Assembly (NCBI GenBank): GCA_020639315.1
Contig: JACKGM010000001.1
Location: 310,767 to 374,766 of the forward strand
Reading direction: 5' to 3'
Origin: Candidatus Nomurabacteria bacterium
Lineage (GTDB): Bacteria > Patescibacteriota > Saccharimonadia > JAGOAT01
DNA: 64,000 nucleotides
Every line of letters begins with the position of its first letter. The first letter of the stretch is position 1. Below are positions 10,301 through 58,578 of the stretch, piece after piece. A program made the translations under genes and the position numbers. A model generated the notes under the pieces. The model saw only the letters and a list, made by a program, of their open reading frames with translations, did no database searches and was not told the DNA's origin.

Positions 10301-10328
10301 TTGGTTAAGAGGTGATATCAGGTATAAT
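10301..10328 (+). promoter_or_regulatory. Putative promoter TTGGTT-N16-TATAAT for the giant gene
   Basis: Hexamers at 10301-10306 and 10323-10328. The in-frame ATG at 10339 lies 10 nt after the -10 box. Confidence 0.35.
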
Positions 10329-10338
10329 GATAAGCAGT

Positions 10339-13300
10339 ATGGAGGGAGTTAAAAAGTTTTTTAGTCTGGATAGGCTATTTGATAAATGGCATCTTGTTTT
10401 GCTAGTAAGCTTTAGCTTGGTGATTGCTTATTTTCTGGTAAGGTTTTTGGACAATCAAAATCCGGTAGTCTTGCAGGTTGGGAATCAGGAGCTGAGGGTG
10501 GAAGACCTTCGTCAAAAGTTAGAGCTAGGACTAGATTACGGTAATCAGCCAGAGGACACTGCAAATGCGATAATAGATATGGAGGCGATTAGGCAAGTCA
10601 ATGCTGGGCTTGGGATAATCCCAACAGAATCAGATATAGAACAATACCTTGGCAATTATACGGACAAGGCACTAGCAGAGAATATCGTACTTCAAAAAAA
10701 TCTTTACAAGTATGCTACCGAGAGTAGAATGCTCAAGCAATACTATGGAGAATATCAGGGTCAGGTCTTTATTTTCCCCTTTGATACCATGGATGGTAGT
10801 CTTGATCAAGAGCGGAAGGATTATGCCTACACAAAAGCTCAAGAGTATTTTACAGAGATTCAGACTGGGGAGAATCCAAATCAAGTACTAGCTGCAATAA
10901 AGGCAGATACCAGACTTCAGCCTGGCTCAGATTCGGATAATTCTAGTGCTAGCTTAGATATCGATTCTAGTGAAAACCTCGAAGATATTTATGGGATTAA
11001 CTACCCAGAGATATTAGATGAACTTTGGAGACTAGATAGTCCAGGTTTAAAAGATATTGTAATGATTAGCCAAGTTGATTCGGAATCTGGTGAGGAATAT
11101 TATAGTCAATATTTTTATTTTATTAATATTACAAATTTTAAAGCTCCGAGACTTGATATACAATCAGAGTATCAGCAGGCAATTGACAAGCTGTTAACTG
11201 AAAGCTATAATTTTGAACCGGATAAAATTAAGCAAATTGGATTTAGTGGTCTTAATAACATTGCTGGTAGACTAAAAGGGTCATTAATACCCAATGTTTA
11301 TGCAAGTGCCGCCAAGAATCATCAGGCAGGTCCTAGTATATTCAAGCAAATTACTAAATATAAGACTAAAAGATCTAAGATTCTCAAAACTTTTGGGGAT
11401 ATTAGTGGCCGAGTCCTGGATCCTGACGGTTATGCGGCACCGGGCTCAATAGTTAGACTCAAATATAAGAATGTCGAGAATCCAAACTGCTTGAAGTGTG
11501 ATAGCGCATTTGTAGATATTGGCAAAGCAGGCAGTACTAAAGGTAAAGGATTAGGTGATGAGTCTGCACCCAGGGTAGATTATCGTAAAGTAAATGCTGG
11601 GGTTCTCTATAACACCACTGAGATGCAAGGATATCATGATTATGTCGAATTAATTACCGATAGTAATGGATATTATTCCCTTAGCTCGATTGATTTATTG
11701 ATTGATTGCAATCGTCATATCACAGAGCATGGAGGGGGTATAGCAGTAGAGATTGCGGTTGAAGTAGTAAATCAATATAAGGACGAACTTACTCTTAACC
11801 AGCCAGTTCAAACGATGCAGGTAGGGGGATCTAGCAAATTGAGATTTACCCAAACAAACCAAAAAAAGTCTAATTTAGCATCAAAGCTCCTTAAGGGTTT
11901 AGAATTTAAATTGGGCAAGAGAGTAGAGGCTGCTGATAATAATCAGGTATTAGTATTTGGTGACTCGATTGCCAATGGCATAAGTAGTGTACTGGATGAA
12001 TATTTACCCGAAGGTTGGTCTATGACTGAAGACTCTGATGATTTACTCTCAAAAGATGGTAGGCATGCGTACAATACATCTGATAACCCTAGCCTTAGCG
12101 GGCTTGCTAATGCTGAGACTGTGGTAGCTAGTGACGCTGGCGAACAGGCAGATGTGGTAGTCATATCCTTAGGGGCGAATGATGTTCCAGCAGATGCTAG
12201 TGATCTGTCAGGTAGTAATGGTTATGCTAATGCCATGCAAGACATTATCAGCTTGTTTATCGACAAACAGATTATACTTGTGGGTTTGTATTATGAAGGT
12301 AGTAATTATAATAATACAGTCAATGCTTATTTAGAGGGCATAGCAGAGGCTAATGAAGGTATTAGCTATATTGATTGGGATAGTATGGTTAGCGAGGATA
12401 GTAGCCTAGGTCAAGGTAGGGATCCTCACCCCAGTCCTGCTGGTTATAAGCAGATTGCTCAAGCGATCGGAGATTATCTTAATAATACTACACCGACTGA
12501 AGCTGGCGCCGAAGAGATAGAAGCGATTGAAGTCTCTGGAGTCTCGGCGGAAGCTTTAAATGATATTCCCGAAACAATGCTTTGGAGATACAAAAAGTAT
12601 TCTGAAGAGTACTGTCCCGGTTTGGATTGGACTGTGATTGCTGGAATGTATAAAAAAGAAAGCAATCATGGACGTTACCCAAATAATACCGTGGCCGCTG
12701 ATGGCACAGTATCGAATCCTATCATTGGAGATGTTTTAACTAGGTCTGGGGAAAGGGCTATTGGGCCTGGACAGTTCTTGCCTTCTACTTGGTCTAGTGT
12801 TGGGTTTGATGCAGACGGGGATGGTGAAGTTAATGCCCAGGATGCGGATGACGCAATAGCCAGTAGTGTAAGATACATTTGCCCAGGTGTGGGTAAAAAC
12901 GATAATTACAAATCTGCAGTTGCGATTTATAATGGCTCAAGTTCTTATTATACAGGTGTCATGAACTGGTCTAGCAGATATAAGGGTACTTTAAGTGAGT
13001 CGTTATCAATCACATCAGCTGCAGATGCAGGTGGTTCTTCTGTCAATGAAGGGACTAGTTCTGCAGATGTTAAGTCTAATAATGATCATGTGGTCAAAGC
13101 ACCAGCAATAGCGACCCGCACAAGAACGACTCCAAGGGAAACACCCTCGGGCACTTCTTTTAATTCACGTAATTCAATCAATCCTGATCTAGGTGGTAAG
13201 CCTGAGGATAAGCCAGACCCAGACCCAAATCCTCCTGAGACTCCTGATATCGAGGGTAAACTTCCACCCCTCGAACGCCCCGTCATCTCGATCAAAAAAT

Positions 13301-16300
13301 ACGTCGGTCACAGCACTGATGATCTCAGTGATGCCCAAGACTCAGCTACAGCTGTCAAGTTCTATCCTGGTCAATCGATAGTCTATCAAGTAGTAATTAC
13401 TCATCAGTCTGGAGCAGATGCGACCAAAGTAGTCTGGTCTGACGAAAACCTTGATGGATTTGTCTCAGGTGGACTGATGGAACTAGGAGATTGGACTAGT
13501 GATACTCAAGTAGATGACATCTTCTCATTCCCTCTCAAACAAGGAGAAGAGATCACCTTCTTAAGAGAAGGCACAATCTCCCTAGATGCTGGTCTCTTCG
13601 GTCTAGACCAAGAATCAGTTCTTAACTCAACTGCTGCCCTTGAAAACATCGCCAGTGTCGATGAACTCAATGATGCTGATCCTGGGATTGCTAGTGGTGA
13701 TCCTGCTAATATCTTGCCGACGATAGCCGAAGTCAAGCTCGATAAGCTAGTCAGCAATATTAGTGACAATATCTTGGATCAGCCAGCCGATGACTTAGAA
13801 CATACTGTCTTTTTCGGTCCTGGAGAAGAAATCGAATACAAAATGGTCATCACCAACGAGGGTCCAGACGGAGCAGTCGGTCTGATTTGGGCTGATGATA
13901 GTCTGCCGACTTTTGCTACCTTTGAAGGCTGGAAGCTTGAGGATGGCTCAGATGCTCCCGAGATGCTATTTGACCCTTCAGTATCAGAAGATACACTAGA
14001 GTCAGGAGAATCAATTACCCTGATCAACCGTGGTCGGATCAATCCTGATGCTGGAGACTTCGGAGTCGGTACTAGCCTAGACCCCCGGGGTGGCTATGAG
14101 AATATAGCCTCAGTCGATCCTCTGACCCACGATAGCAACCTAGAAAACAATACCAACCCAGCCTGGATCTCCCCCAAGCTAGTCGACCTCACCATCAAAA
14201 AACAAGTCTCCAACCTCACCGAAACCCCATTCCTCTCCCCAGGCACAAGTCCCTACTACCTCAGTGATGGTCCTATCTACTATGATGCAGATAGTATAGA
14301 CAATGCAGTCTCCTTCGGTCCTAGTGAAGAGATAGAGTACCGTATAGAGATAATAAACAACGGTCCAGACGAAGCCACCTCTATCAGCTTCACTGATCCT
14401 GATCTCCCAGATGAGCTAGTAGACTGGGAGTCAGACGGCTGGATCAACGCTGAGACTGGTGAAACCGTATCCTCAGGAGATACCATCTTCCCAATCCCAG
14501 CCGAAGGAGCTCCGACTGAATTCCTCTGGCCTGAAGAGTCCAAGACGATTGATCCTGAGACCAAAGCAGAAACCACAGTCAACAATATCACTGAAGGTAA
14601 GAGAGTCAGAATAGTCCTAACCAAGAAAGGTAGAATCAAGAACGACCTAGCTAATACCGATTGGTTCCAGTCTAATACTGCTCACCAAAACACTGCAGAA
14701 GTCTCTACTATCAATCCAGAAACCAACTATGACAACAATACCAACGATGCCTACATCGACCCCAAGGTCACAGACATCATCATCGGTAAAGTCGGTCAGA
14801 CTGGTAATGACACTGGTCTAGCAGGTAAAGAACTAACTTGGACGATTAGAGTAGTCAACAATGGTAAAGACTCAGCTATCTCTCTCGTAGACAATGGAGG
14901 AATCAAGCTAACCGACTACCTCAACCTCAAAGACACCTACAATGAAACAGTTACCTATCAATGTGTCCCTGCCTATGCCTGCAGTGTCCCAACCGGAGAA
15001 ATCAACTCCACTGACAATCCCGAAGGTATCCTAGACCTAGAACTCTACCTCGGCCCTGGCTTTGGAGACATGGAGCAAGTAGACTTCATCGATATCCTCT
15101 CAGATGAGGAGCTGTCAGCCAACCAAACCGACACTACCAACAACAACACCACCACCAACAACAACACTAACACCACTAACACCAATAACACCAACACCAC
15201 CACCAACACTAACACTACCAACAACACTACCAACAACACTGACACCACCCAAACCACCAATACTGATCTAACCACCCTCCCCGTCTGTGAGACTGGTAGA
15301 TTCATCGGTATTAACAAGGCTACTGACACTACTACAGGCTTCAACCCCGATATCAACGAGGATGGCAATGGAGACCTCTATGTTCTCTTCAATACCAATT
15401 GCTTTAGCTCCTACCCTGACCTCAGCCACTTCGAGCTAACAGACCTCTCCCTTAGCAGTGATGAAGTAGTCAACTACCTCACCCAGTATCAAGGTGGTAA
15501 AATTGCTTACTATCAAACCCCTACTCACCTAAACACCACCAATCAAGTAGACATCCAAATCACCGCTAGACTAGCTGACCATGTCACCTATGGTGATGAT
15601 GTCACTACTCAAGCAGTAGATGAGATCTGTAATCCTAGTGACAAGAACAACCCTGATCAAAAAGTCCATGTCGAAAAGACCGAAACCGTAGCCTGGGAAT
15701 TGTCACTAGACAATAACACCGCTCCCCTAAGATGTATCCCAGTAATGCTCTGTTACAACGAAGATGGTCAAGCCTTAGCTAGCTATCCCGGTAAAGAAGG
15801 AGAAGACTTCTATCTCTCATTCGTCGGAGTAGACAATGAAGGTAACAAACTCTATGATCAATCTCTAGATGAACTAATCGCTAGAGATGACTTAGCAGGA
15901 CTAGATGTGATCTGTCGTAAGCCTACTACCTGTGAGCTTAAAGTAACGCGGACGATAGTACTAGCCAATGGTACAGAAGAAACCACTGATGTCGAAGTCA
16001 CCGAACTATTTGATGGCTCAGCTGCTGGTGCTGATACCACTGACCTCGGATACTACAACTTTAGCCTAGAGTGTCAAAACCTCGAAGACGGACAATCCCC
16101 CAACCTCACGATTGAAGTCATCCGCCGTCTCTTCGGTCCCTACTTCGCGATCGAAGATGGTTCAGCCACAGTGCTCGGAGAAATAGTCAAAGGTGTCTAT
16201 CCTGAAGACAATGACCTAGACATCACTCGTCATACCCACATCCTGACCGCTACCAATGAAATCTCTTCAATCTTCTGCTCACTAACCGAGATCATGGCAG

Positions 16301-17109
16301 CCGGAGAGAGTGTAGACTGTACTAGTCCTAGTGACCTAGCTGGAGCCGGATACCCAATCCGTCTAGACGGAGGTAGCAAGGACAACTTTGTCAATGTACT
16401 TGACTCAATAGAGAGTCTAATCGCAGAACCAGACTCCTCCCCCTATGAAGTAGTTACTATTAACAACCTAAACCAAATCCCCCTTGACCTCAGTGATGGT
16501 AAGAGCCCAGACTTCGAACCTGATCCCAACTCCACCACTACCCCAGTCCCTTACCCCACCCTCTATGTCTATGATGGAGATCTAGAGATCTCAGCTAGTC
16601 AAGCTATGCACTACAATGCAGGTCTAGCTACTATCTACGTCAGGGGTAATGTCTACATCAATGGAGACATCATCAGAGATGACAATACAGTGATAGAAGA
16701 CATAGATGAGTATCCCAACCTAGGTATTATCTCTACTGGCAATATCTACATCAGACCAGACACCTCCAAATCAGTAGAGACTCCCCAAGTAATTGACGCC
16801 AGTCTCTTCGCCCAAGGTATGATCGAAACAGCCTACCGTCAAACCACTCAAACCCCAATCCCCGAATACTATACCAACCAACCCCTAATCTTCCATGGTA
16901 CAGTAGCCTCCAAGGGAGATGAGAGTGTCCCAGGAGTCAAAGACCCAATCACCAATCAAGTCTATGCCTTCAAACTAAACAGGACCAATGTCTCAGTCAC
17001 CCTAGGACAAGACTGTAACAATACTCAAGTCTCTGAATGCTTTGCACCAGACAACTCAATCTTTATTGCTACTCCTCCGGGGTTTGAGGATCGGCTTAGC
17101 TCGGAGTGA
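10339..17109 (+). CDS. Giant surface protein (about 2250 aa): N-terminal TM anchor, SGNH/GDSL hydrolase, lytic transglycosylase, four DUF11-type repeats, an Asn/Thr tract and a large C-terminal region
   Basis: One uninterrupted ORF; the ORF track starts it at GTG 10312. SGNH blocks are VLVFGDSIANG, ISLGANDV and DPHPSPAGY (about 11940-12480). Transglycosylase motifs are YKKESNHG, IGPGQFLPSTW, DADGDGEVNAQDADDAI and AIYNGSS (about 12580-12960). Repeats end in ENIASVD or NTAEV...DNNTND. Confidence 0.8.
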   Translation: MEGVKKFFSLDRLFDKWHLVLLVSFSLVIAYFLVRFLDNQNPVVLQVGNQELRVEDLRQKLELGLDYGNQPEDTANAIIDMEAIRQVNAGLGIIPTESDIEQYLGNYTDKALAENIVLQKNLYKYATESRMLKQYYGEYQGQVFIFPFDTMDGSLDQERKDYAYTKAQEYFTEIQTGENPNQVLAAIKADTRLQPGSDSDNSSASLDIDSSENLEDIYGINYPEILDELWRLDSPGLKDIVMISQVDSESGEEYYSQYFYFINITNFKAPRLDIQSEYQQAIDKLLTESYNFEPDKIKQIGFSGLNNIAGRLKGSLIPNVYASAAKNHQAGPSIFKQITKYKTKRSKILKTFGDISGRVLDPDGYAAPGSIVRLKYKNVENPNCLKCDSAFVDIGKAGSTKGKGLGDESAPRVDYRKVNAGVLYNTTEMQGYHDYVELITDSNGYYSLSSIDLLIDCNRHITEHGGGIAVEIAVEVVNQYKDELTLNQPVQTMQVGGSSKLRFTQTNQKKSNLASKLLKGLEFKLGKRVEAADNNQVLVFGDSIANGISSVLDEYLPEGWSMTEDSDDLLSKDGRHAYNTSDNPSLSGLANAETVVASDAGEQADVVVISLGANDVPADASDLSGSNGYANAMQDIISLFIDKQIILVGLYYEGSNYNNTVNAYLEGIAEANEGISYIDWDSMVSEDSSLGQGRDPHPSPAGYKQIAQAIGDYLNNTTPTEAGAEEIEAIEVSGVSAEALNDIPETMLWRYKKYSEEYCPGLDWTVIAGMYKKESNHGRYPNNTVAADGTVSNPIIGDVLTRSGERAIGPGQFLPSTWSSVGFDADGDGEVNAQDADDAIASSVRYICPGVGKNDNYKSAVAIYNGSSSYYTGVMNWSSRYKGTLSESLSITSAADAGGSSVNEGTSSADVKSNNDHVVKAPAIATRTRTTPRETPSGTSFNSRNSINPDLGGKPEDKPDPDPNPPETPDIEGKLPPLERPVISIKKYVGHSTDDLSDAQDSATAVKFYPGQSIVYQVVITHQSGADATKVVWSDENLDGFVSGGLMELGDWTSDTQVDDIFSFPLKQGEEITFLREGTISLDAGLFGLDQESVLNSTAALENIASVDELNDADPGIASGDPANILPTIAEVKLDKLVSNISDNILDQPADDLEHTVFFGPGEEIEYKMVITNEGPDGAVGLIWADDSLPTFATFEGWKLEDGSDAPEMLFDPSVSEDTLESGESITLINRGRINPDAGDFGVGTSLDPRGGYENIASVDPLTHDSNLENNTNPAWISPKLVDLTIKKQVSNLTETPFLSPGTSPYYLSDGPIYYDADSIDNAVSFGPSEEIEYRIEIINNGPDEATSISFTDPDLPDELVDWESDGWINAETGETVSSGDTIFPIPAEGAPTEFLWPEESKTIDPETKAETTVNNITEGKRVRIVLTKKGRIKNDLANTDWFQSNTAHQNTAEVSTINPETNYDNNTNDAYIDPKVTDIIIGKVGQTGNDTGLAGKELTWTIRVVNNGKDSAISLVDNGGIKLTDYLNLKDTYNETVTYQCVPAYACSVPTGEINSTDNPEGILDLELYLGPGFGDMEQVDFIDILSDEELSANQTDTTNNNTTTNNNTNTTNTNNTNTTTNTNTTNNTTNNTDTTQTTNTDLTTLPVCETGRFIGINKATDTTTGFNPDINEDGNGDLYVLFNTNCFSSYPDLSHFELTDLSLSSDEVVNYLTQYQGGKIAYYQTPTHLNTTNQVDIQITARLADHVTYGDDVTTQAVDEICNPSDKNNPDQKVHVEKTETVAWELSLDNNTAPLRCIPVMLCYNEDGQALASYPGKEGEDFYLSFVGVDNEGNKLYDQSLDELIARDDLAGLDVICRKPTTCELKVTRTIVLANGTEETTDVEVTELFDGSAAGADTTDLGYYNFSLECQNLEDGQSPNLTIEVIRRLFGPYFAIEDGSATVLGEIVKGVYPEDNDLDITRHTHILTATNEISSIFCSLTEIMAAGESVDCTSPSDLAGAGYPIRLDGGSKDNFVNVLDSIESLIAEPDSSPYEVVTINNLNQIPLDLSDGKSPDFEPDPNSTTTPVPYPTLYVYDGDLEISASQAMHYNAGLATIYVRGNVYINGDIIRDDNTVIEDIDEYPNLGIISTGNIYIRPDTSKSVETPQVIDASLFAQGMIETAYRQTTQTPIPEYYTNQPLIFHGTVASKGDESVPGVKDPITNQVYAFKLNRTNVSVTLGQDCNNTQVSECFAPDNSIFIATPPGFEDRLSSE
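15121..15270 (+). repeat. Low-complexity ACC/AAC/ACT codon tract encoding an Asn/Thr-only linker inside the giant CDS
   Basis: It translates to TDTTNNNTTTNNNTNTTNTNNTNTTTNTNTTNNTTNNTDTTQTTNTD. Confidence 0.9.
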
Positions 17110-17140
17110 TTTTCTGGAATCAGGCTAATGAGGGGGGTAT

Positions 17141-17310
17141 TGTCATCCTCCAGTTAAATACTGGATCTCCGGTATTACCCTCCGGGTAATCCGAAGATGA
17201 CAGGAGGAGGGCATTGTCATCCTCCGAAGTTCGGAGAACTTACGGGGGATCCAGTATCTTGCATCGTGCATTGTCATCCTCCGAATTCTCCTTGTCCTGT
17301 CATTCTCCAA
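17141..17310. repeat. REP/BIME-like hairpin repeat cluster A
   Basis: There is a full forward unit at 17216-17257 (GTCATCCTCCGAA-hairpin-TTACGGGGGATCCAGTAT) and a reverse subtype-2 unit at 17158-17202. Half units GTCATCCTCC are also present. Confidence 0.8.
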
Positions 17311-17385
17311 AATCCCCTATTCCCCTTGCCAAGACTATGGCGGTTGTGGTTAAATGAAATAGTAGGAATTTGAAAACAAATAAAA

Positions 17386-25292: not shown

Positions 25293-25795
25293 TGAGCAGA
25301 CAGGTTAAAAGAGGTGATACAATTTTAGAGGTCTTAATTGCCTTGGTAATTCTTGGCTCGATTTTGGCAATTGCCATCGTCAGCGTGACTAGGTCAGTCC
25401 GGCAGACTAGGGCAGCTCGAGAGAGGATTCAGGTCGACTTGCTGATAGAAGAACAGGCCGAATACTTGGACTTTTTGGTCAGAAGCTTGCCTTGGGACAC
25501 TAATGATATCCCGGTGGGAAAGACTGCTCAAGATTATCCATTTTTTATCGGGGATCGGGTCGATGGCTGTGGTCAGAAATGCTATATTGAAAAGTCAGAG
25601 AGTAGTGATGCTCTCTCAGTGAAGAGTGGAGAATATACCGAGATAGCTCCATATAGGATTTATTTTCAAAAAAAGGATTACCCAAGCGCTTTTCAAACTA
25701 CCGAGTCAATGCTGGTAGCGATTCAGGCAGAGTGGATTGACCCTAATAATGAGACCCAGTACACAGTAATTACCAAGGAATACAGCAAGAGATGA
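25292..25795 (+). CDS. Prepilin-type protein (minor pilin candidate)
   Basis: N-terminus KRG|DTILEVLIALVILG. Confidence 0.6.
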   Translation: MSRQVKRGDTILEVLIALVILGSILAIAIVSVTRSVRQTRAARERIQVDLLIEEQAEYLDFLVRSLPWDTNDIPVGKTAQDYPFFIGDRVDGCGQKCYIEKSESSDALSVKSGEYTEIAPYRIYFQKKDYPSAFQTTESMLVAIQAEWIDPNNETQYTVITKEYSKR

Positions 25796-26550
25796 TAAAC
25801 GATAAAAAAACCATAAAACATCAAAAAGGTTTTACTCTAGTAGAGCTTTTGATAGCCTCATCGATATTTTCTTTTCTCTTGGCGATTAGTCTAGCTGGAT
25901 TTATGAATATTACCAATCTTTTTCGTCAGGCTGCCACAATGCGAGCTTTGCAACAGGATACTGATGAGATTATTAACGAGATTAGAGATGACATCAATAG
26001 TGCTAGGGGGGTCAAGATTTGCCGGGCAGGAGAGGATTATATCAATATCGATAACCCGGTGGAAAACTGTATGGAGGGGTTAGAAGAAAATCGAGCGACC
26101 TACCTCAATGATCCTGAAGATCTAATCAATATCGATAGTGACTTGCTTTGTCTGAAGGGAGATAGAGAAGGCCAGGATATTGTTTATCGGACTGAACTAG
26201 TAGATAATAATGAACTAATCGAAAATACCCCTACGACAGTTTTGGTCAAATATACCAATGTCACTCATTGTAACCTCAGTGTTACTGGTGGAGTGAGAAC
26301 CCCTCAGGTTATCACTAGTCAGAGGAATAGAATCTATAGTTTAAACTTTAGTCGGGTACATGGGGTAGAAAAGAGAGGGAAGTTGGAGATTGATTCAATC
26401 GAGATTATGCTTGATATTAGACAGGCTCGGATTTTGGAAAAAGCTTCAAGTAGTGGGGCAAGGGCATTTACTGCTAGCCTTTATCTAGAGACCTCGGCTA
26501 ATACTCGAGGTTGCTATGCTGGCACTACCACTTGTCCACCTGCCAATTAG
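25792..26550 (+). CDS. Prepilin-type protein (minor pilin candidate)
   Basis: N-terminus HQKG|FTLVELLIASSIF. Confidence 0.65.
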   Translation: MINDKKTIKHQKGFTLVELLIASSIFSFLLAISLAGFMNITNLFRQAATMRALQQDTDEIINEIRDDINSARGVKICRAGEDYINIDNPVENCMEGLEENRATYLNDPEDLINIDSDLLCLKGDREGQDIVYRTELVDNNELIENTPTTVLVKYTNVTHCNLSVTGGVRTPQVITSQRNRIYSLNFSRVHGVEKRGKLEIDSIEIMLDIRQARILEKASSSGARAFTASLYLETSANTRGCYAGTTTCPPAN

Positions 26551-26560
26551 TAGCCCTATT

Positions 26561-26664
26561 CTGTCGTCCTCCGAATTCTAAACCTGTATTGTCATCCTCT
26601 GAAACCTACTACTCTTCTGTCATCCTCCAAAGCTCAGAGAGCTTACGGGGGATCCAGTATTTGA
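26561..26664. repeat. REP/BIME-like hairpin repeat cluster B
   Basis: Half units start at 26563 and 26591. A full forward unit lies at 26619-26660. Confidence 0.75.
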
Positions 26665-26902: not shown

Positions 26903-28591
26903 ATGACAATTGATAAACTCAATCAAAATATTGCCGAAGCTTTAAATATTCCTTTAGAGGATTTGGTTTGGAAGCTAGATCAGGCTAAGTTTAAGGCTGA
27001 TTTAGTCTTGGTTTTGGCTCCCTTACTATCAAAGTATCATCTAGGGATCAAAGAGTTGCAGAATAGTCTGATCGAGGTCTTGGAAGATTATTCGGATGAT
27101 CTGAGCTATAACTTCGTAGGGGCTTATCTTAATATTCAGCTCAAATTAGAAGTTCAAATCAATCTTTTGATTGAAAAGTTGAGACAGGCAAACGGTTTGG
27201 GCTTGGAGTATGGACAAGCTCCCGCTAAAGGCCAGCTGGCGATAGTTGATTTTATTGGTCTAAATATAGCTAAGCCGTTTTCGGTAGGGCATCTTAGGCC
27301 GACGGTTCAAGGTTGGGCAATTATTCAGATCTTAAGAAATGCTGGCTATCAAGTGATTGGGGACAATCATCTGGGGGATTGGGGGACCCCCTTCGGGATG
27401 TGGGTTTATGCCTATTTGCATTGGGGGAGTAAAGAAGCGATTGAAAAGCGAGGGGTCTATGAACTTAATGACTTATATATCAAATTTCGCCAAGCACTTA
27501 AAAAGAAGCCAGAGTTAATCGAGGAAGCGAAATTAATCTTGCGTAAGCTAGAGAACGGTGATCCAAAAGTCAAAGAGCTTTATGACTGGTTTTATCAATT
27601 ATCAGTCAAGGATATGGATCAAATGCTATCTACGCTTGGGGTCAAGGCTGATCAGACGATTGGTGAGTCATTTTACCAAGATCGAGCCAATCGGATGGTC
27701 GAGGAATTGCTTCAATCGGGGGTTGCTAGGAAGGGAGACGGTGGAGCAGTCATTGTAGAGCTTGACGACCAAGGGATTGAGACACCGATCATGCTCAAGA
27801 AATCAGACGGTAGCAACTTATACAGTACTAGTGATCTGGCCACTATTGATTACCGTCTTGAGCATTGGCATCCAGATCGGATTATTTATGTAGTATCTAC
27901 AGAACAAAGCTTTCACTTTAATCAGCTATTTGCTCTAGCCAAAAAATTAGGCTTAGATCAGGCCAAACTAATCCATGCCGGATTTGGCAATATCGATGAA
28001 ATCACGGATGGTAAGCGGGCAAAGATCTCCTCTCGTAAAGGGGTGATCCTGCTCAAGGACTTGATTAGCCAAGTCTTGGAGTATACCAAGCAACAATTCT
28101 CAAATGATCAGCTCTCAGATCAGGACTATAGCAAGATTGCGATTGGGGCGATCAAGTTTGCCGATCTAGCCCAACATCGCAAGACTAGTATCCTCTATGA
28201 TTTTGATAAGATGTTTGCACTCAATGGCTATTCATCAGTATATTTACAATATACCGTAGTCAGACTGAGGTCTCTAATTAATAAAGCTGGTATAGACACA
28301 AGTATTAAAGATTTATCAAAATTGGATCAAAATGCTAAGTCAGTTGTAGTTGAGCTGTCACGCTTCGGTCAGGTACTAGAAGATAGTGCCAATGAACTAT
28401 TGCCTCATCGGGTATCAGAGTATCTCTATGGACTAGCCAAAGAAGCTAACCGACTCTATGAGCATTCTAGAGTATTATCAGAAGATAACTTAGAGCTTAA
28501 AAGAGCCAAGCTCAAACTATTCGGATTGTCAGCTCAGGTAATTACTAGGGGGCTTGAGCTTCTAGGAATCGAAGTCCCTGACAGGATGTAG
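26903..28591 (+). CDS. argS: Arginyl-tRNA synthetase
   Basis: 562 aa with the FSVGHLRP (HIGH-like) motif, GDNHLGDWG, KISSRKG (KMSKS-like) and a DALR-type C-terminus. Confidence 0.9.
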   Translation: MTIDKLNQNIAEALNIPLEDLVWKLDQAKFKADLVLVLAPLLSKYHLGIKELQNSLIEVLEDYSDDLSYNFVGAYLNIQLKLEVQINLLIEKLRQANGLGLEYGQAPAKGQLAIVDFIGLNIAKPFSVGHLRPTVQGWAIIQILRNAGYQVIGDNHLGDWGTPFGMWVYAYLHWGSKEAIEKRGVYELNDLYIKFRQALKKKPELIEEAKLILRKLENGDPKVKELYDWFYQLSVKDMDQMLSTLGVKADQTIGESFYQDRANRMVEELLQSGVARKGDGGAVIVELDDQGIETPIMLKKSDGSNLYSTSDLATIDYRLEHWHPDRIIYVVSTEQSFHFNQLFALAKKLGLDQAKLIHAGFGNIDEITDGKRAKISSRKGVILLKDLISQVLEYTKQQFSNDQLSDQDYSKIAIGAIKFADLAQHRKTSILYDFDKMFALNGYSSVYLQYTVVRLRSLINKAGIDTSIKDLSKLDQNAKSVVVELSRFGQVLEDSANELLPHRVSEYLYGLAKEANRLYEHSRVLSEDNLELKRAKLKLFGLSAQVITRGLELLGIEVPDRM

Positions 28592-28622
28592 TATTATTGG
28601 GCTTGTTCTCTAATATTTGTAT

Positions 28623-28954
28623 TATAGCAAGTTAAAAACAAAACCAGACTTTTGACCCAACTCTAGAGTCTATAACCCTGTTGCCATATAAACTTGCGAG
28701 GTCAAAGCTGATGATTTTTATTCCAGAATACCAAAACACGACAAAGCATAACAGGAGTTACGCTGCGAAGTGTTTTGCTAGTCTGGGGCAAAAATGGCAG
28801 TTTTGAAGCCGTGAGGTTATATGGCAACAGGGTTAGTTTATCAAGCTAGTTTTCTTACTCACCATATCTATGGATATGGCTCTTAAGAAGAACTACCTTT
28901 CTAGTTCTCTATAGTACAGCTCAAATTGTCTGGTTTTGGTTTGAGCTTGCTATA
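28623..28954. mobile_element. MITE-like element family 1, long copy (332 bp), carrying a nested palindromic insertion at 28674-28834
   Basis: The terminal inverted repeats are TATAGCAAGTTAAAAACAAAACCAGAC and GTCTGGTTTTGGTTTGAGCTTGCTATA. The internal element is bounded by a perfect 18-bp inverted repeat, AACCCTGTTGCCATATAA / TTATATGGCAACAGGGTT. Confidence 0.75.
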
Positions 28955-28963
28955 GATCCATGG

Positions 28964-29210
28964 TAATGCGGAGATACTGGATCCCCCGTAATCCTCTTCA
29001 TAGGATTCGGAGGATGACAATGCACCTCTCTCCTGTCATCTTCGGATTTCTCTAAAAGAGAAATACCGGAGATCCAGTATTTGAATTTGGTATTAAAGTA
29101 ATGCGGAGATACTGGTTCCCCCGTAAGTTCTCCGAACTTCGGAGGATGACAAGATAAGGGACGGGTTTCGGAGGATGACAATGCCCGGGTTGGTTCTAGG
29201 AGGATGAGAA
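28964..29210. repeat. REP/BIME-like hairpin repeat cluster C, with units in alternating orientation
   Basis: Units lie at 28974-29018 (reverse), about 29036-29080 (forward, subtype 2) and about 29109-29150 (reverse). Half units are also present. Confidence 0.8.
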
Positions 29211-29219
29211 CTTCTGGAA

Positions 29220-29663
29220 CTAGGCTGCGACGACTTTGATCTTGCGAACTTTTTCTTGAGCAACCTTTGGAATCTTGATAGTTACTACACCGTTTTCCAT
29301 TTTGGCTTCTGCCTTATCGGCAATTGCAGGGGTAGGTAAGATTACCGATCTCGAGAAAGATCCCCAGAAACACTCTTGGATATAGTAGTCTCGACCTTTG
29401 GTCTGAGAGGACTCCTCTCGACTTCCCCTGATAGTTACTACATCGTCGCTAATCGCAATGTCAAGCTTGTCTGGGCTAATCCCAGCAATCGGAGCCATAA
29501 TGACCACATGGGTCTTGGTCTGATAGACATCTACATTGAGCTGTCCTTCAACATCATCATCTCCATCAATCCAGCCATCATTGTCGGTTTCATCCATATC
29601 AAGAAATGAATCATCTACTACCAAATCATCGTCATCTTGAACTATTGTACTTTTTCTAGCCAC
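29220..29663 (-). CDS. Small heat-shock protein (Hsp20/alpha-crystallin family) with an acidic N-terminal extension
   Basis: The alpha-crystallin core is VDVYQTKTHVVIMAPIAGISPDKLDIAISDDVVTIRG...ENGVVTIKIPK. The gene has a GTG start preceded by GGAGG. Confidence 0.85.
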   Translation of the reverse strand: MARKSTIVQDDDDLVVDDSFLDMDETDNDGWIDGDDDVEGQLNVDVYQTKTHVVIMAPIAGISPDKLDIAISDDVVTIRGSREESSQTKGRDYYIQECFWGSFSRSVILPTPAIADKAEAKMENGVVTIKIPKVAQEKVRKIKVVAA

Positions 29664-29722
29664 TCTCCTCCTTTGCGCGGTTGCTACTAGCTTAATTGTT
29701 ATAAGATTTTGTTTACAATCTG

Positions 29723-29751
29723 ATTATACTTGAGTAATTATAGATAGTAAA
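29723..29751 (-). promoter_or_regulatory. Putative hsp20 promoter TTTACT-N17-TATAAT (minus strand), back-to-back with the rpsT promoter
   Basis: Reverse complement of 29746-29751 and 29723-29728. Confidence 0.4.
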
Positions 29752-29753
29752 GC

Positions 29754-29782
29754 TTTACATTTCTTAATTTATAAGGTAATAT
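29754..29782 (+). promoter_or_regulatory. Putative rpsT promoter TTTACA-N17-TAATAT; the -10 box ends 7 nt before the ATG (leaderless geometry)
   Basis: Hexamers at 29754-29759 and 29777-29782. The ATG is at 29790 and has no SD. Confidence 0.45.
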
Positions 29783-29789
29783 AACCATT

Positions 29790-30200
29790 ATGCCAATTAT
29801 AAAGTCAGCAATCAAGCGTTCCAAGCAGGAAGTAAGAAGACGAGCCAATAATCGCCTGGTCAAATCTGAATTTCGAGGACTAACTAAGGAGTTTATGATT
29901 GAAGTGAAGGCTGGCAAATACGATCAAGAGCAATTTAAGAAGGTAATTTCTAGTTTAGATCGAGCTGTCAAGAAGGGAGTGTTACACCGTAACACAGCAG
30001 CCCGTAAGAAATCTAGCTTAGCCAAGCTAGCTAATACTGTCAAAAAGTCCAGTAATCTAGTAGACGATCAAGCTAAGGTAGTTGCCAGCAAAAAAACTGA
30101 AGCTCCAAAGAAAGCTGTCAAGAAAAGTACCAAAACTCCTACTGCTGATACTAAGAAAACTCCAGTCAAAAAGACTTCAGCCAAGAAAACAACTGCTTAG
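29790..30200 (+). CDS. rpsT: 30S ribosomal protein S20 with a Lys/Ala/Thr-rich C-terminal extension
   Basis: The N-terminus MPIIKSAIKRSKQEVRRRANNRL is typical of S20. Residues from about 88 to 136 form a basic low-complexity tail. Confidence 0.85.
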   Translation: MPIIKSAIKRSKQEVRRRANNRLVKSEFRGLTKEFMIEVKAGKYDQEQFKKVISSLDRAVKKGVLHRNTAARKKSSLAKLANTVKKSSNLVDDQAKVVASKKTEAPKKAVKKSTKTPTADTKKTPVKKTSAKKTTA

Positions 30201-30201
30201 T

Positions 30202-30310
30202 TATAGCAAGTTAAAAACAAAACCAGACTTTTGACCCAACTCAGGAGTCTATAAAGCTAATTTTCTATAGTACAGCTCAAATTGTCCGGTTTTGTTTTGA
30301 GCTTGCTATA
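30202..30310. mobile_element. MITE-like element family 1, short copy (109 bp)
   Basis: It has the same terminal inverted repeats as 28623-28954 with most of the interior missing. It starts 1 nt after the rpsT stop codon. Confidence 0.75.
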
Positions 30311-30328
30311 CTTAGCTCTTCTTTTCCA

Positions 30329-30415
30329 AGGTGTCACCGTACAAATCAAGTGAATTATGGCATAATTCAGGTCAATAGTATCTTTTTGTGTTAAAAATAA
30401 CTGTGAGGTGTCACC
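30329..30415 (+). repeat. 87-bp element, copy B, with GGTGTCACC palindromes at 30330-30338 and 30407-30415
   Basis: It has the same block lengths and the same 77-bp palindrome spacing as copy A at 337-423. Confidence 0.6.
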
Positions 30416-30445
30416 CCGATGACGACCCAGATGACGATGAAGGTC

Positions 30446-30860
30446 AAATACTGGATCCCCCGTAAACCCTTCGGGTTTCGGAGGATGACAAGACAAGAGA
30501 GAGTTTCGGAGGATGACAAGACCCTCCCCGTGTCATCTTCGGATTTCTCTAAAAGAGAAATACCGGAGATCCAGTATTTGAATTTGGTATTAAAGTAATG
30601 CGGAGATACTGGTTCCCCCGTAAGTTCTCCGAGCTTCGGAGGATGACGAGAGTTGGGTCACTAAGCCAAAATTTCGCAGGGATTTATGTGAGATCCAGTA
30701 TTTGGGTTAGGAATTAGGACAATGCAGAGATACTGGATCCCCCGTAAACCCTCTGGGTTTCGGAGGATGACAATGCACTATGCCAGATACTGTGTCACCG
30801 TAAGTTTTTTGAACTTCGGAGGATGACAAGACAGGTGGCAGGTTTCGAGGGACGACAAAA
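30446..30860. repeat. REP/BIME-like hairpin repeat cluster D, the largest cluster
   Basis: Reverse units lie at about 30448-30490, 30606-30647, 30730-30772 and 30787-30828. A forward subtype-2 unit lies at about 30533-30577. The segment 30531-30650 differs from 29034-29153 at only 2 of 120 positions. Confidence 0.8.
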
Positions 30861-30883
30861 TAGGGGTGGCACAGATTAAGGCT

Positions 30884-31237
30884 CTAACCGCCAATACTCT
30901 TTAGAACAAAGCCGATAATCGCGTAAGACAGTAGGGCAATCACTATCCCAATGATTGCATAGAGAATAGTATTTCTAGCAGATTCAAATGCCTTGGGGTC
31001 TCCTTGAGACAGTATCATCCTCAGCCCAGCAATAATAATCACTATCACTGACGCGATGCCGATGATTACTAAAAGAACTTGGGTAACCTTAGAAAAGGTT
31101 GTGTCAATACTCTTGCCTTCAAGATCAGTTCCATTAGCAGCACAGCTTGCTCCACCTGCAATACTTGAGAAATCTGTACACGCAGCGTAAACTTTCCAGC
31201 TAAATAGTCCAAGTGTGTTATATATAAAATCTATCAA
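30884..31237 (-). CDS. VirB2/TrbC-like T4SS pilin paralog 1 (no obvious signal peptide, TTG start)
   Basis: It has a Cys-X12-Cys loop followed by two TM helices, VLLVIIGIASVIVIIIAGL and ILYAIIGIVIALLSYAIIGFV, flanking QGDPKAFESARN. Confidence 0.6.
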   Translation of the reverse strand: MIDFIYNTLGLFSWKVYAACTDFSSIAGGASCAANGTDLEGKSIDTTFSKVTQVLLVIIGIASVIVIIIAGLRMILSQGDPKAFESARNTILYAIIGIVIALLSYAIIGFVLKSIGG

Positions 31238-31242
31238 AATAT

Positions 31243-31596
31243 TTACCCAATACTAGTCAAGACAAAGTTGATAATCGCGTAAGACAGTAGGGCAATCACT
31301 ATCCCAATGATTGCATAGAGAATAGTATTTCTAGCAGATTCAAATGCCTTGGGGTCTCCTTGAGAGAAGACCATTCTCAGCCCAGCAATAATAATCACTA
31401 TCACTGACGCGATGCCGATCACTACCAAAAGTACTTGGGTAACACTCGAAAATACTTCACCAATAGTCTTACTCTTATCAATGTCTTCAACATTATTTAC
31501 AGCACAGTTAACTCCACCTTGAATAGTCCCACCACAAAGATCAGCAAAACTGCCATGAAAAAGATTACTAAGCATATTGGCAATACTAGAAAACAT
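31243..31596 (-). CDS. VirB2/TrbC-like T4SS pilin paralog 2 (no obvious signal peptide)
   Basis: Its C-terminal half matches paralog 1, including an identical DNA stretch of about 95 nt. The N-terminal part has diverged and carries a Cys-X10-Cys loop. Confidence 0.6.
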   Translation of the reverse strand: MFSSIANMLSNLFHGSFADLCGGTIQGGVNCAVNNVEDIDKSKTIGEVFSSVTQVLLVVIGIASVIVIIIAGLRMVFSQGDPKAFESARNTILYAIIGIVIALLSYAIINFVLTSIG

Positions 31597-31604
31597 CTGC
31601 CCTT

Positions 31605-32003
31605 CTAGTTGCCAGTTTCAAATTGACCGACGACGAATCGAACGATTGCAAAGGCAAGTATGGCGATCACGATCCCAATAATTGCGTAGAGAATAGTATT
31701 TCTGGCAGATTCGGCAGCCTTTTGATCACCTTGACTCAGGACATAACGAAAGCCCCCAATGATCAGCATGATGACCGAGACCACCCCGATAGCATATAGT
31801 AAGAAATTGGTAATGTTTTCGATATTGACTGTTAAGTCTGATTGTTGTGAATCATCTTTGGCTTGACAGGCGCCTTGCAGAATTGGGTTACCACCGCTAC
31901 TATCACAATCAGCACCTGAGCTAGGTGCGGCGTAAGCCATATGCACAGCCAGGAAGCTGGAGGCACTAGCAAGTGAGTAGTTAATTTTATTTAATAGTGT
32001 CAT
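31605..32003 (-). CDS. VirB2/TrbC-like T4SS pilin paralog 3 (has a signal peptide and a strong SD)
   Basis: I prefer the ATG at 32003, preceded by AGGAGA, over the ORF-track start at 32078. The signal-like N-terminus is MTLLNKINYSLASASSFLAVHMAYA, followed by a Cys-X13-Cys loop and two TM helices. Confidence 0.65.
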   Translation of the reverse strand: MTLLNKINYSLASASSFLAVHMAYAAPSSGADCDSSGGNPILQGACQAKDDSQQSDLTVNIENITNFLLYAIGVVSVIMLIIGGFRYVLSQGDQKAAESARNTILYAIIGIVIAILAFAIVRFVVGQFETGN

Positions 32004-32115
32004 TTGATCTCCTATGATTATACTTTTATTGACCTTAAGCATTATTGTACCAAGTTTTATGATTTCTGCAAGGGGCAAATAATCACAAGCAAAATTTTGT
32101 GCTATGCTAGTTTTG

Positions 32116-58414: not shown

Positions 58415-58578
58415 TATAGTAAGCTCAAAACCAAACCGGACAATTTGAGCTGTACTATAGAGAACTAGAAAGGTAGTTCTTCTTAAGAGCCATATCCATA
58501 GATATGGTGAGTAAGAAAACTAGCTTGATAGACTCTAGAGTTGGGTCAAAAGTCTGGTTTTGTTTTTAACTTGCTATA
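58415..58578. mobile_element. MITE-like element family 1, medium copy (164 bp, inverted relative to 28623-28954), between divergent dedA and sortase
   Basis: It has the same terminal inverted repeats and the internal block AGAACTAGAAAGGTAGTTCTTCTTAAGAGCCATATCCATAGATATGGTGAGTAAG. It lacks the nested 161-bp insertion. Confidence 0.75.

Follow-up and report, generated by a model that had tools for sequence, protein, structure and literature searches.

The CGTC-tagged REP superfamily includes the dRS3/NTS repeats of Neisseria (Di Nocera, De Gregorio & Rocco 2013, PMC3733652) and has its main home in the Alphaproteobacteria. Its members carry the tag CGTC (variants TGTC and CCTC), a stem of 8-9 bp with A/T complementarity at pairs 1-2, a loop of 4-5 nt (atypical in a few families) and an unpaired 3-nt tail of the CCA type; they occur mostly as head-to-head (HH) dimers with spacers of 20-100 bp, tags-inside (TT) junctions and clusters being rare, and they are extragenic, near the 3' end of the upstream ORF, in unidirectional or convergent gaps (PMC3733652). 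A role at the RNA level was inferred by the same authors from this location and from G·T pairs, no enzyme gene flanked by CGTC repeats was seen, and the families were regarded as possibly extinct relics (PMC3733652).

The NTS/dRS3 repeats are cut, as ssDNA only and on one strand, by the small GIY-YIG nuclease SsnA (Chenal 2025, PMC11893778), which acts on neither RNA nor dsDNA and does not bind RNA. Binding depends most on the C following the palindrome and cleavage on the 3 nt preceding it; the identity of the loop is dispensable and lengthening of the stem at the loop position is tolerated, and the enzyme reads the sequence of the palindrome as well as its shape (PMC11893778). Ssn proteins are single-domain GIY-YIG nucleases of ~94 aa (cd10448) encoded in 81% of the genomes with >200 such motifs, the gene is often flanked by repeats, and NTS clusters adjoin membrane and host-interaction genes (PMC11893778). 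In the Neisseria intergenic mosaic elements (NIMEs) the 20-bp dRS3 (ATTCCC-N8-GGGAAT) flanks RS elements of 50-150 bp from >100 RS spacer families; NIMEs have been stated to be absent outside Neisseria, and their arrays can be much longer than those described here (PMC1797815).

Saccharibacteria are naturally competent (PMC10633639), and no earlier report of CGTC-type repeats from Patescibacteria was found in the literature. Here we describe repeats in a 64-kb stretch of saccharibacterial DNA (hereafter the window) that probably constitute a new member of this known superfamily, namely a saccharibacterial family of CGTC-tagged REPs, or Ssn-related motifs, acting as ssDNA with an Ssn-type nuclease.

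Repeat units, clusters and dimers

Units were counted using a covariance model built from the window units, with strong units scoring 57-71 bits. The window holds 12 full units (10 intact or strong, 2 decayed) and nine half units, a form already recognized in the preliminary description, all within four intergenic clusters (A-D, Table 1); outside the clusters the model finds zero units in the 64 kb. The half-unit core TTCGGAGGATGACAA occurs in 13 copies in the window (0.09 expected) and the opposite arm ATACTGGATCCCCCGTAA in 11 (0.04 expected), and neither count was reached by any shuffle. The clusters are mosaics of imperfect palindromes of alternating orientation, in which two stem subtypes alternate as had been described; the half units, eight of nine with GTC, make up slippage-like arrays with a period of 28-29 nt. 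The four clusters sum to 961 nt, in agreement with the earlier figure of nearly 1 kb, or 22% of the intergenic DNA of the window. Short-read assemblies break at the arrays, and every public contig of the organism that was retrieved ended at or near them.

Table 1. Coordinates of repeat clusters, their constituent units and MITEs in the window.
Feature	Position	Strand	Remarks
Cluster A	17139-17313	+	31 nt past stop of 2265-aa surface protein gene (10312-17109, +); upstream of pilM
A, truncated arm	17141-17154	+	
A, subtype-2 unit	17158-17205	-	
A, subtype-1 unit	17212-17257	+	
A, half units	17272-17285 and 17298-17311	+	
Cluster B	26552-26660	+	11 nt past stop of pseudopilin gene (25792-26550, +); upstream of two tRNA genes
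B, half units	26562-26575 and 26590-26603	tag strand +	
B, full unit	26615-26660	tag strand +	
MITE-1	28623-28954	+	same gap as cluster C; 27-nt TIRs TATAGCAAG..AAAACCAGAC; carries nested MITE-2
MITE-2	28674-28834		nested in MITE-1; 18-nt TIR AACCCTGTTGCCATATAA
Cluster C	28963-29215	-	abuts hsp20 stop (hsp20 29220-29663, -)
C, solo subtype-1 unit	28974-29022	-	upper stem AATCCT/AGGATT; 62.8 bits
C, TT junction	29020-29033		between solo unit 28974-29022 and next unit; 14-nt spacer ATGCACCTCTCTCC
C, HH dimer, duplicate copy 1	29031-29154		complete; tags outside
Copy 1, subtype-2 unit	29031-29080	tag strand +	
Copy 1, linker	29081-29108		28 nt
Copy 1, subtype-1 unit	29109-29154	tag strand -	
C, half units	29167-29180 and 29196-29209	-	tag and 5' arm only; 29 nt spacing; adjoin hsp20 stop
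MITE-1 copy	30202-30310	+	internally deleted; same gap as cluster D; inserted at rpsT stop codon
Cluster D	30437-30860	-	ends 26 nt from stop of T4SS pilin gene (30884-31237, -)
D, solo subtype-1 unit	30448-30493	-	70.6 bits
D, half unit	30505-30518	-	
D, HH dimer, duplicate copy 2	30528-30651		98% identical to 29031-29154
D, third HH dimer	30653-30775		in tandem; 65% identical
Third dimer, decayed arm	30653-30701	+	
Third dimer, linker	30702-30729		diverged
Third dimer, intact unit	30730-30775	-	
D, decayed subtype-1 unit	30787-30831	-	3' arm lost; 26.6 bits
D, half unit	30844-30857	-	

On the tag strand the unit reads 5'-(T/C)GTC, AUCCUCCG, upper helix and loop, bulged A, CGGGGGAU, CCA(G)-3'. 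The tag of the hairpin is unpaired, as is its CCA tail, and the 8-bp stem opens with A-T and T-A and contains an invariant T·G pair; the 13-19 nt between the stem halves comprise a second, upper helix of 6-8 bp that is variable in sequence and covarying, a loop of 3-6 nt and the bulged A. Nine of the ten strong units have the tag TGTC and one has CGTC; all ten carry CCA after the stem, and neither the GTC preceding the palindrome nor the C directly following it varies among them; two units read GGTTC, which breaks the first stem pair. The unit is a true hairpin with heavy covariation: 95.1% of cells pair (25-54% in slid controls), compensatory double changes occur at 7 of 14 pairs, and the covariation score was reached by 0 of 500 shuffles. 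Three lower-stem variants are found in the lineage (AUCCUCCG/CGGGGGAU, AUCUUCGG/CCGGAGAU and AUAUUCCA/UGGGAUAU), and all three retain U·G and the bulged A in spite of their different stem sequences.

The 124-bp HH dimer, with its tags on the outside, is conserved better than any other entity. Positions 29034-29153 and 30531-30650 differ, exactly as first reported, at 2 of 120 positions (29136 A/G and 29151 A/G), one of the differences changing the tag from TGTC to CGTC in copy 2. Identity ends sharply at ~29031 and 29154, the extent of one complete dimer. The two dimer loci lie 1.5 kb apart and the adjoining solo units differ; the sequence sharing is recent, as had been concluded, and confined to the dimer. 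The conserved linkers of the preliminary description resolve into two classes, of ~12-14 nt where tags face and ~28 nt where heads face, but TTTGAATTTGGTATTAAAGTAATGCGGAGAT itself occurs solely inside the duplicate (29080-29110 and 30577-30607), its third copy having diverged. In cluster D one motif is tandemly amplified with a period of 124 nt, cluster A holds an HH dimer with one arm deleted, and TT junctions are found in clusters A, C and D. A diversity-generating retroelement, considered on account of both differences being A/G, was rejected, as the repeats are non-coding and there are just two transitions.

The arrays could be relic repeats with no active partner, kept and reshuffled only through slippage, unequal crossing-over and the conversion of short tracts between adjoining clusters. 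The periodic half-unit arrays and the tandem motif of cluster D fit such a history, gene conversion is possible between near-identical dimers so close together, and CGTC families have been proposed as heading to extinction (PMC3733652). However, tag, tail, wobble and bulge are strictly kept across the three covarying stem variants, which argues for ongoing selection by a recognizing factor, and identical upper stems are found at distant loci (17212-17257, 29109-29154 and metagenome contig L017), so that we regard a relic origin as rather improbable.

Gene context, orientation and RNA folding

The gene identities given previously (argS, hsp20, rpsT encoding S20, and the pilins, which are T4SS VirB2/TrbC-like) were upheld. 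A type IV pilus machine is also encoded in the window, and three of the four clusters come after surface or pilus genes. The clusters had been placed at convergent gene ends, which is correct for C and D; A and B lie between co-directional genes. Among the gaps of the window, clusters are present in two of the 5 convergent and two of the 41 co-directional ones but in none of the 5 divergent ones. Nor do C and D fill their two gaps on their own, as had been supposed: MITE-1 (164 nt with 27-nt terminal inverted repeats) is located in both, in one case with MITE-2 nested in it. MITE-1 and MITE-2 are unrelated to the hairpin units and bring the share of the window's intergenic DNA taken up by clusters and MITE families to ~37%.

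All four clusters begin 11-31 nt past a stop codon. For all eight subtype-1 and all nine half units (4 of 4 clusters), the tag strand has the sense of the gene that ends next to the cluster, and subtype-2 units are antisense to that gene in every cluster. GC skew is positive throughout the window, and unit orientation tracks the direction of the genes, not that of replication. Position and orientation are both arguments for a primary role at the RNA level, in which selected 3'-UTR hairpins would halt 3'-to-5' exonucleases, reduce read-through or, if located near the stop codon, stall ribosomes at termination, as shown for E. coli REPs. In gene sense the tag strand bears U·G and not C·A, RNA folding is stronger in sense than in antisense (-19.2 vs. 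-14.6, -20.9 vs. -18.6 and -24.7 vs. -21.0 kcal/mol), the fold of the cluster C RNA reaches -85.5 kcal/mol (z = -3.4), and the inference of Di Nocera et al. from location and G·T pairs was the same (PMC3733652). The RNA of the dimer 29031-29154 folds into a three-arm structure (-46.1 kcal/mol, z = -5.3).

Against a primary RNA role, a pure stability element needs no invariant wobble, bulge, unpaired GTC tag and CCA tail amid changing stems, and the antisense subtype-2 units present in every cluster would carry a C·A mismatch in the transcript. Decayed copies are tolerated, and the main stem lacks the U-tract that an intrinsic terminator requires directly after it, the scanner for such terminators flagging just alternative small hairpins within dimers. 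Searches of Rfam 15 gave only two tRNAs above the gathering threshold in the window and nothing relevant at E <= 5 in positions 28550-30900. Moreover, a syntenic relative (L013, ArgS 72% identical) with the same gene order expresses the same genes without any unit. We therefore consider the RNA-level explanation unlikely as the primary one. Resemblances to a tRNA-like minihelix, a K-turn and a phage coat-protein operator were dropped, the geometry being unsupportive. CUGGAUC/CCUCC also resembles the 3' end of the 16S rRNA and the anti-Shine-Dalgarno sequence, for which family membership is the better explanation.

The three gaps of L013 orthologous to those of clusters B, C and D contain no units, and the clusters are thus lineage-specific insertions. 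Mobility or turnover of the units is supported by this absence together with the 98% dimer identity and the decayed copies. The idea that clusters B and C, being inverted, are the ends of a transposon carrying the tRNAs and argS was rejected, since L013 has the same gene order with zero units.

Relatives outside the window and family assignment

Relatives with the same long-loop unit and HH-dimer layout were found in Alphaproteobacteria MAGs, the dimer length being 115-125 bp across two phyla, and a dRS3-like arm is present at metagenome locus L018. In the genome and metagenome scans, GGATC, GTA, the C·A position, GATGAC and the CC of the tail were constant elements of the search pattern, and these columns are conserved by construction in sequences outside the window. 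About 7 chance matches were expected per scan by a rough estimate, and 9 of 20 matches were hairpin-less chance matches (L007, L008, L010, L011, L015, L016 and L020-L022). The genes around the alphaproteobacterial copies are ordinary housekeeping genes only (e.g., lpxA-lpxI, rnhA, brnQ); an orientation rule for these copies was withdrawn, the copies being symmetric dimers. No unit was detected in the viral contigs scanned, and BLAST of cluster C and one alphaproteobacterial dimer against 72,556 plasmids gave no match.

The TGTC/CGTC tag and the CCA tail, with no GTAG, assign the units to the CGTC-tagged REP superfamily, of which the NIMEs of Neisseria are the clustered form. The window units share with CGTC REPs the tag, the 8-bp stem opening A-T/T-A, the CCA tail, the G·T pairs of the tag strand, the HH dimers, the position near 3' ends and the lack of an adjacent transposase gene, but they replace the 4-5 nt loop by a bulged A and a covarying helix of 6-8 bp, and clusters and TT junctions are the rule. 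Accordingly, the published Ssn-related motif pattern HGTCWYN(0-2)YYVSBRHN(0-5)WNVSBRGN(0-2)RNCYNB has 0 matches in the window, and the same pattern with the loop relaxed to N(0-25) has 9, which are 9 of the 10 strong units (0.62 expected). Compared with the Neisseria NTS (CGTCAT-TCCCGCG-MAV-CGCGGGA-ATCYRG), the unit (TGTCAT-CCTCCG-...-CGGGGG-ATCCAG) agrees in the tag, in the AT at which the stem begins and in the ATCYRG tail, and it is on these positions that cleavage and binding by SsnA depend. In both cases oriented repeats form clusters near genes for pilus, surface or membrane proteins, and the bacterium is naturally transformable; the palindrome sequence of the window unit differs, and its apical part is much longer.

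Like NIMEs (PMC1797815), the arrays consist of CGTC-type inverted repeats with recurring spacer families, lie in intergenic DNA beside genes for surface proteins and pili, differ in length from one relative to another and are intermixed with other small mobile elements. Unlike NIMEs, they have the stem ATCCTCCG/CGGGGGAT, just two linker classes (spacers of 12-14 and 28 nt) and half-unit slippage arrays, so that only the array logic is common. The layout also resembles E. coli BIME-2, and with E. coli REP/BIME and Pseudomonas REPINs (PMC3337134, PMC3479197) the units share alternating imperfect palindromes, conserved short and long linkers, tandem dimer amplification, a doublet better conserved than singlets and an extragenic position downstream of genes. 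The initial designation as BIME-like is hence apt for the architecture but not for the family, which is of the CGTC/NIME type and not of the GTAG/RAYT type of E. coli; the window units have (T/C)GTC, and there is no RAYT among the window ORFs.

These likenesses could also indicate REPIN-type elements moved by an HUH/Y1 tyrosine transposase (RAYT or IS200/IS605 TnpA) that reads an imperfect ssDNA hairpin. The well-conserved inverted doublet with its spacer, the extrahelical base and mismatch in the hairpin, and the lack of visible target-site duplications at the dimer ends, both in the window and at the Alphaproteobacteria loci, agree with such a mechanism. The defining GT(A/G)G tag, however, is missing, (T/C)GTC is the hallmark of the other REP superfamily, which has never been found flanking RAYT genes (PMC3733652), and the Y1_Tnp domain occurs in no window ORF; no transposase gene was detected in the window or the other loci examined. 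Mobilization by a Y1 enzyme is accordingly doubtful. For classical MITEs derived from an insertion sequence with a DDE transposase, the arguments would be the dimer ends 5'-TGT...ACA-3', with terminal inverted repeats beginning TGTCAT (TGTCAT...ATGACA), and the similar dimer length in two phyla. Yet no dimer end inspected has a target-site duplication, each arm is in itself a covarying hairpin whose apical helix differs from that of the other, a feature superfluous for a simple terminal inverted repeat, and neither a matching insertion sequence in the window nor similarity to plasmid records was found; this origin is very improbable.

A putative Ssn-type system and its implications

For the preferred reading, a CGTC-tagged motif acting together with an Ssn-type nuclease, the functional form would be the folded tag strand as ssDNA. 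A small single-domain GIY-YIG nuclease of the Ssn type, from a gene at another place in the genome, may bind this strand and nick it immediately 5' of the tag. Incoming transforming or other transient ssDNA would then be cut beside the arrays, as happens in Neisseria, and these cuts would influence how the adjoining pilus and surface-protein genes recombine. The nuclease or recombination between copies would explain the spread of the units, the homogenization of dimers, the tandem amplification and the slippage arrays of half units. Transcribed units also form stable 3' RNA hairpins, but such effects as these might have on mRNA decay or read-through would be secondary. Stabilization of mRNA, termination and protein binding had been suggested in the preliminary description as possible functions; since the closest characterized system acts as ssDNA and its nuclease lacks RNA binding, RNA effects are a possible side effect and not the best-supported mechanism.

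Several observations weigh against this reading. The acting enzyme is inferred, as no GIY-YIG (Ssn) ORF was found in the 64-kb window or the other loci examined (Pfam on window ORFs and a crude motif scan). SsnA reads the palindrome sequence too, and a cognate enzyme with different specificity must therefore be assumed. The loop is longer than the published 4-5 nt or N0-5, TT junctions are frequent here and rare in the described CGTC families, and Di Nocera et al. saw no enzyme gene flanked by such repeats in families that may be extinct relics (PMC3733652). Finally, the coincidence of tag strand and gene sense (n = 4) is accounted for no less well by a rule tied to transcription or RNA than by one that acts on ssDNA. 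Going further, we tentatively suggest as a possibility that the saccharibacterium runs an Ssn-type system in which an ssDNA-specific GIY-YIG nuclease reads long-stem CGTC hairpins and the arrays behind pilus, secretion-pilin and giant surface-protein genes gate recombination with transforming ssDNA, diversifying or protecting surface genes in a NIME-like manner; the long apical helix might then define a class of Ssn substrates missed by current patterns and also present in Alphaproteobacteria.

The units extend to the candidate phyla radiation (CPR) a recently characterized repeat family on which the first site-specific ssDNA nucleases act. In the CPR natural transformation has only just been shown, and it is the route to genetics in these organisms. 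Published CGTC/SRM search rules (loops <=5 nt) miss the long-stem subclass in at least two phyla, and in a genome supposed to be streamlined the arrays and two MITE families take up more than a third of the window's intergenic DNA. If a cognate nuclease exists, arrays located by pilus and surface genes could restrict allelic exchange or influence its course, an effect that, if true, matters for epibiont biology and for the design of transformation constructs.

Structure and inventory of the hairpin units

The repeat unit is a covarying hairpin with an invariant tag, tail, wobble and bulge. On the tag strand it comprises, in order, an unpaired (T/C)GTC tag, an 8-bp lower stem (AUCCUCCG/CGGGGGAU) whose fifth pair is U·G (T·G), a bulged A, an upper helix of 6-8 bp whose sequence varies among copies while complementarity is kept, a small loop and an unpaired 3' tail CCA(G). 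When 16 distinct units were aligned, 95.1% of the cells were paired and compensatory double changes were found in 7 of 14 pairs; the covariation score was reached by none of 500 shuffles, and pairing was only 25-54% in a slid-partner control. Subtype 2 (AUCUUCGG/CCGGAGAU) has two stem pairs changed on both sides, and a third subtype, found on metagenome contig L017 (AUAUUCCA/UGGGAUAU), has three; wobble and bulge are kept in both. The tag strand folds more strongly than its complement by 2-5 kcal/mol. Because the irregularities stay at fixed positions while the stems covary, these data favour protein recognition over mere hairpin stability as the explanation.

A covariance model made from the units was run unfiltered over the full 64 kb and matched 10 strong units (57-71 bits) and two decayed ones, all within the four intergenic clusters A-D, which also hold nine half units (tag plus 5' arm). 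Of the two arm motifs, the window has 13 and 11 copies, respectively, vs. 0.09 and 0.04 expected from shuffles.

Positions of clusters, dimers and MITEs in the window and in outside loci (L numbers; the long-stem dimers lie in Alphaproteobacteria MAGs and one metagenome contig)
Feature	Sequence	Position	Remark
Cluster A	window	17139-17313	after gene for 2265-aa surface protein
Cluster B	window	26552-26660	after final pseudopilin gene of type IV pilus operon
Cluster C	window	28963-29215	
Cluster D	window	30437-30860	
Tags-outside dimer	window	29031-29154	
Tags-outside dimer	window	30528-30651	
MITE-1, copy 1	window	28623-28954	contains nested MITE-2
MITE-1, internally deleted	window	30202-30310	inserted exactly at rpsT stop codon; CTTAG either side
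MITE-1, full length	window	58415-58578	opposite orientation; between VTT-domain gene and sortase gene
MITE-2	window	28674-28834	
MITE-1	L023	760-835	
MITE-1	L017	1-13	
MITE-2	L023	817-975	
Long-stem dimer	L001	224-342	
Long-stem dimer	L006	6530-6652	
Long-stem dimer	L003	2928-3130	linker longer than in other outside dimers
Long-stem dimer	L005	6993-7129	linker longer than in other outside dimers
Long-stem dimer	L018	4239-4374	one arm dRS3-like
CGTC-type cluster	L019	143-1102 (with abutting insertion sequence)	

Architecture, orientation and surroundings of the clusters

The best-conserved entity is a head-to-head dimer with tags outside. The near-identical duplicate noted in the preliminary description was recovered, 29034-29153 and 30531-30650 differing only at 29136 and 29151 (both A/G), and corresponds to one complete dimer of a subtype-2 and a subtype-1 unit; identity drops sharply just beyond 29031 and 29154. 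The long linker within the dimer is 28 nt and A/T-rich, and its GCGGAGATAC looks like a shortened 3' arm (TCGGAGGATGAC). In a terminator scan the subtype-1 3' arm CGGGGG could alternatively pair with CUCCG of this linker (29104-29123 and 30601-30620, minus strand). Cluster D carries a third dimer copy in tandem (65% identical, period 124 nt). Junctions with facing tags have a second conserved spacer, which reads ATGCACCTCTCTCC in cluster C, ATGCCCTCCTCC in cluster A and AGACCCTCCCCG in cluster D. Since both spacer classes recur, A, C, D and metagenome contig L023 are all laid out as unit, short spacer, unit, long linker and unit. Half units have a 28-29-nt period beside the stop codon, with six consecutive copies on L017. 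Copying or conversion of dimers, together with tandem duplication and slippage, would account for growth of the arrays.

The placement just after stop codons is lineage-specific. In every cluster the subtype-1 units (eight of eight) and half units (nine of nine) have a tag strand that coincides with the sense strand of the gene ending 11-31 nt away, and the four subtype-2/3 units are all antisense to the gene ending beside the cluster. GC skew is positive throughout the window, and unit orientation therefore tracks transcription, not replication. With four clusters, this sense-strand rule is suggestive, not established. It keeps alive the main rival explanation, an RNA-level role of the units. 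Stable RNA hairpins will form in the 3' UTRs in any case (single units at -19 to -25 kcal/mol, a dimer at -46 and cluster C at -85), although the fixed irregularities amid covarying stems point to protein recognition.

The flanking genes described previously (argS, hsp20, rpsT and three VirB2/TrbC-like pilins) were borne out. The arrays are not confined to convergent gene ends: clusters occupy two of five convergent but also two of 41 co-directional gaps, and none of five divergent gaps. Unit arrays do lie in both convergent gaps described earlier, although MITE-1, also present in both, had not been told apart from them. MITE-1 (164 nt; three window copies) has 27-nt terminal inverted repeats, TATAGCAAGyTmAAAACAAAACCAGAC, and TA at both flanks. 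MITE-2 (161 nt) has 18-nt terminal inverted repeats, AACCCTGTTGCCATATAA, and is nested likewise at a different locus on L023. Unique sequence separates MITE-1 from cluster D (30311-30436); within it GGTGTCACC and GATGACGA occur twice each and may be further decayed tag fragments. Intergenic DNA of the window amounts to 4276 nt, with 961 nt in unit clusters and 605 nt in the MITE-1 copies.

Among other window genes, three tandem paralogous T4SS pilin genes (30884-32078, minus strand; 117, 117 and 157 aa) adjoin cluster D, and T4SS genes (PrgI, TraC-like, VirB4-like) lie at the window start. A type II toxin-antitoxin pair lies downstream of rpoD (62416-62966, plus strand), in which the genes for a MazE-like antitoxin (80 aa) and a PemK-family toxin (108 aa) overlap.

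Relatives and outside occurrences

ArgS of the window matches, at 100% identity, an NCBI protein assigned to a Candidatus Saccharibacteria bacterium. In the next relative by ArgS (72% identical), represented by contig L013, the genes are arranged as in the window (pseudopilin, two tRNAs, argS, hsp20, rpsT, pilin, pilin). None of its three orthologous gaps contains units, and gap sizes are 133 and 219 nt vs. 628 and 683 nt in the window. Because this relative keeps the gene order without units, the clusters are, as judged from sequence comparison, lineage-specific insertions that would be dispensable for expressing the adjoining genes. All short-read contigs retrieved for the organism (L016, L030, L012, L024-L029) end at or near a repeat cluster, e.g., an hsp20-rpsT contig of 1072 bp and the 2157-bp argS contig of GCA_020428505.1; the arrays thus interrupt assemblies, and MAG collections probably under-represent them.

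The search pattern applied to public collections itself prescribed the tag, some of the tail, the bulge and the position of the wobble; in outside sequences the only independent evidence is the upper helix, the covariation (Y-R and S-S), the base preceding GGATC and the presence of a partner arm. When 185,579 species genomes were scanned with the exact pattern, no Saccharibacterium was matched. The scan identified seven Alphaproteobacteria MAG loci (including three in a Rickettsiales MAG and one Rhizobiaceae MAG) with the unit as in the window and a perfect, unrelated upper helix; four further matches were chance hits without a hairpin. The Alphaproteobacteria loci contain a tags-outside dimer of 115-125 bp amid ordinary housekeeping genes, e.g., lpxA and lpxI, and show no target-site duplication. 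The metagenome scan yielded two same-lineage contigs (L017 and L023), the dimer with a dRS3-like arm on L018 and a further contig, L019.

A related CGTC-type cluster was found in a different low-GC organism (L019, Ga0214923_10219147, GC 29%), comprising one unit, two reversed half units and one loop-only unit. An IS4/IS5-family insertion sequence (241-aa DDE_Tnp_1 plus DUF4096, inverted repeats GGCTCCGTTGACATTT) lies immediately next to this cluster. Insertion sequences are known to land in REP clusters of other bacteria.

Family assignment and putative mode of action

Two superfamilies of prokaryotic REPs are distinguished, one tagged GTAG and the other CGTC (Di Nocera et al., PMC3733652), and the literature settles the units as CGTC-tagged REPs (CGTC/NTS). 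The earlier term "BIME-like mosaic" is a fair account of the layout, but the family is not that of E. coli REPs. CGTC REPs have unpaired CCA-fitting tails and G·T pairs, form mostly head-to-head dimers with tags outside, occupy gaps of unidirectional or convergent gene pairs near the upstream ORF's 3' end, are commonest in Alphaproteobacteria and have no dedicated transposase (PMC3733652). The window units agree in all these features and differ in the loop, which is 4-5 nt in described families. We found no earlier report of a CGTC-type unit in Patescibacteria. Domain search and motif scans detected no transposase, Y1 or GIY-YIG domain in the window ORFs; RAYT-type mobilisation of the units and their interpretation as a DDE MITE are both less likely, as is the view that they are relics without a partner. 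A SsnA-sized 94-aa ORF in the gap before the giant surface-protein gene (9931-10215, minus strand) has no GIY-YIG motif; it gave a weak match to DciA (helicase loader; E = 0.004).

Neisseria dRS3 repeats are CGTC-1 and were extended to the oriented, 28-nt NTS, CGTCATTCCCGCGMAVGCGGGAATCYRG (Chenal et al., 2025, PMC11893778). SsnA, a 94-aa single-domain GIY-YIG protein, binds and cuts NTS on this strand alone, and solely in the form of ssDNA. The C that follows the palindrome is the main determinant of binding, and the three bases that precede the palindrome are the main determinant of cleavage; the loop sequence does not matter, and lengthening of the stem at the loop is tolerated (PMC11893778). 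SsnA also reduces integration of transforming DNA carrying NTS, and "Ssn-related motifs" flank ssn genes across phyla (PMC11893778). An action of the units as ssDNA rather than mRNA is the best-supported reading. By family membership, an Ssn-type nuclease encoded beyond the window would act on the folded tag strand as ssDNA, and this would affect how incoming ssDNA recombines close to the arrays. Natural competence is a trait of Saccharibacteria (PMC10633639), and a type IV pilus machine is encoded in the window.

The published Ssn-related motif pattern had no match in the window; once loops of up to 25 nt instead of 5 nt were allowed, it matched nine of the 10 strong units vs. 0.62 expected. 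The published search pattern (loop ≤5 nt) would miss this long-stem/long-loop subclass, the Alphaproteobacteria copies included.
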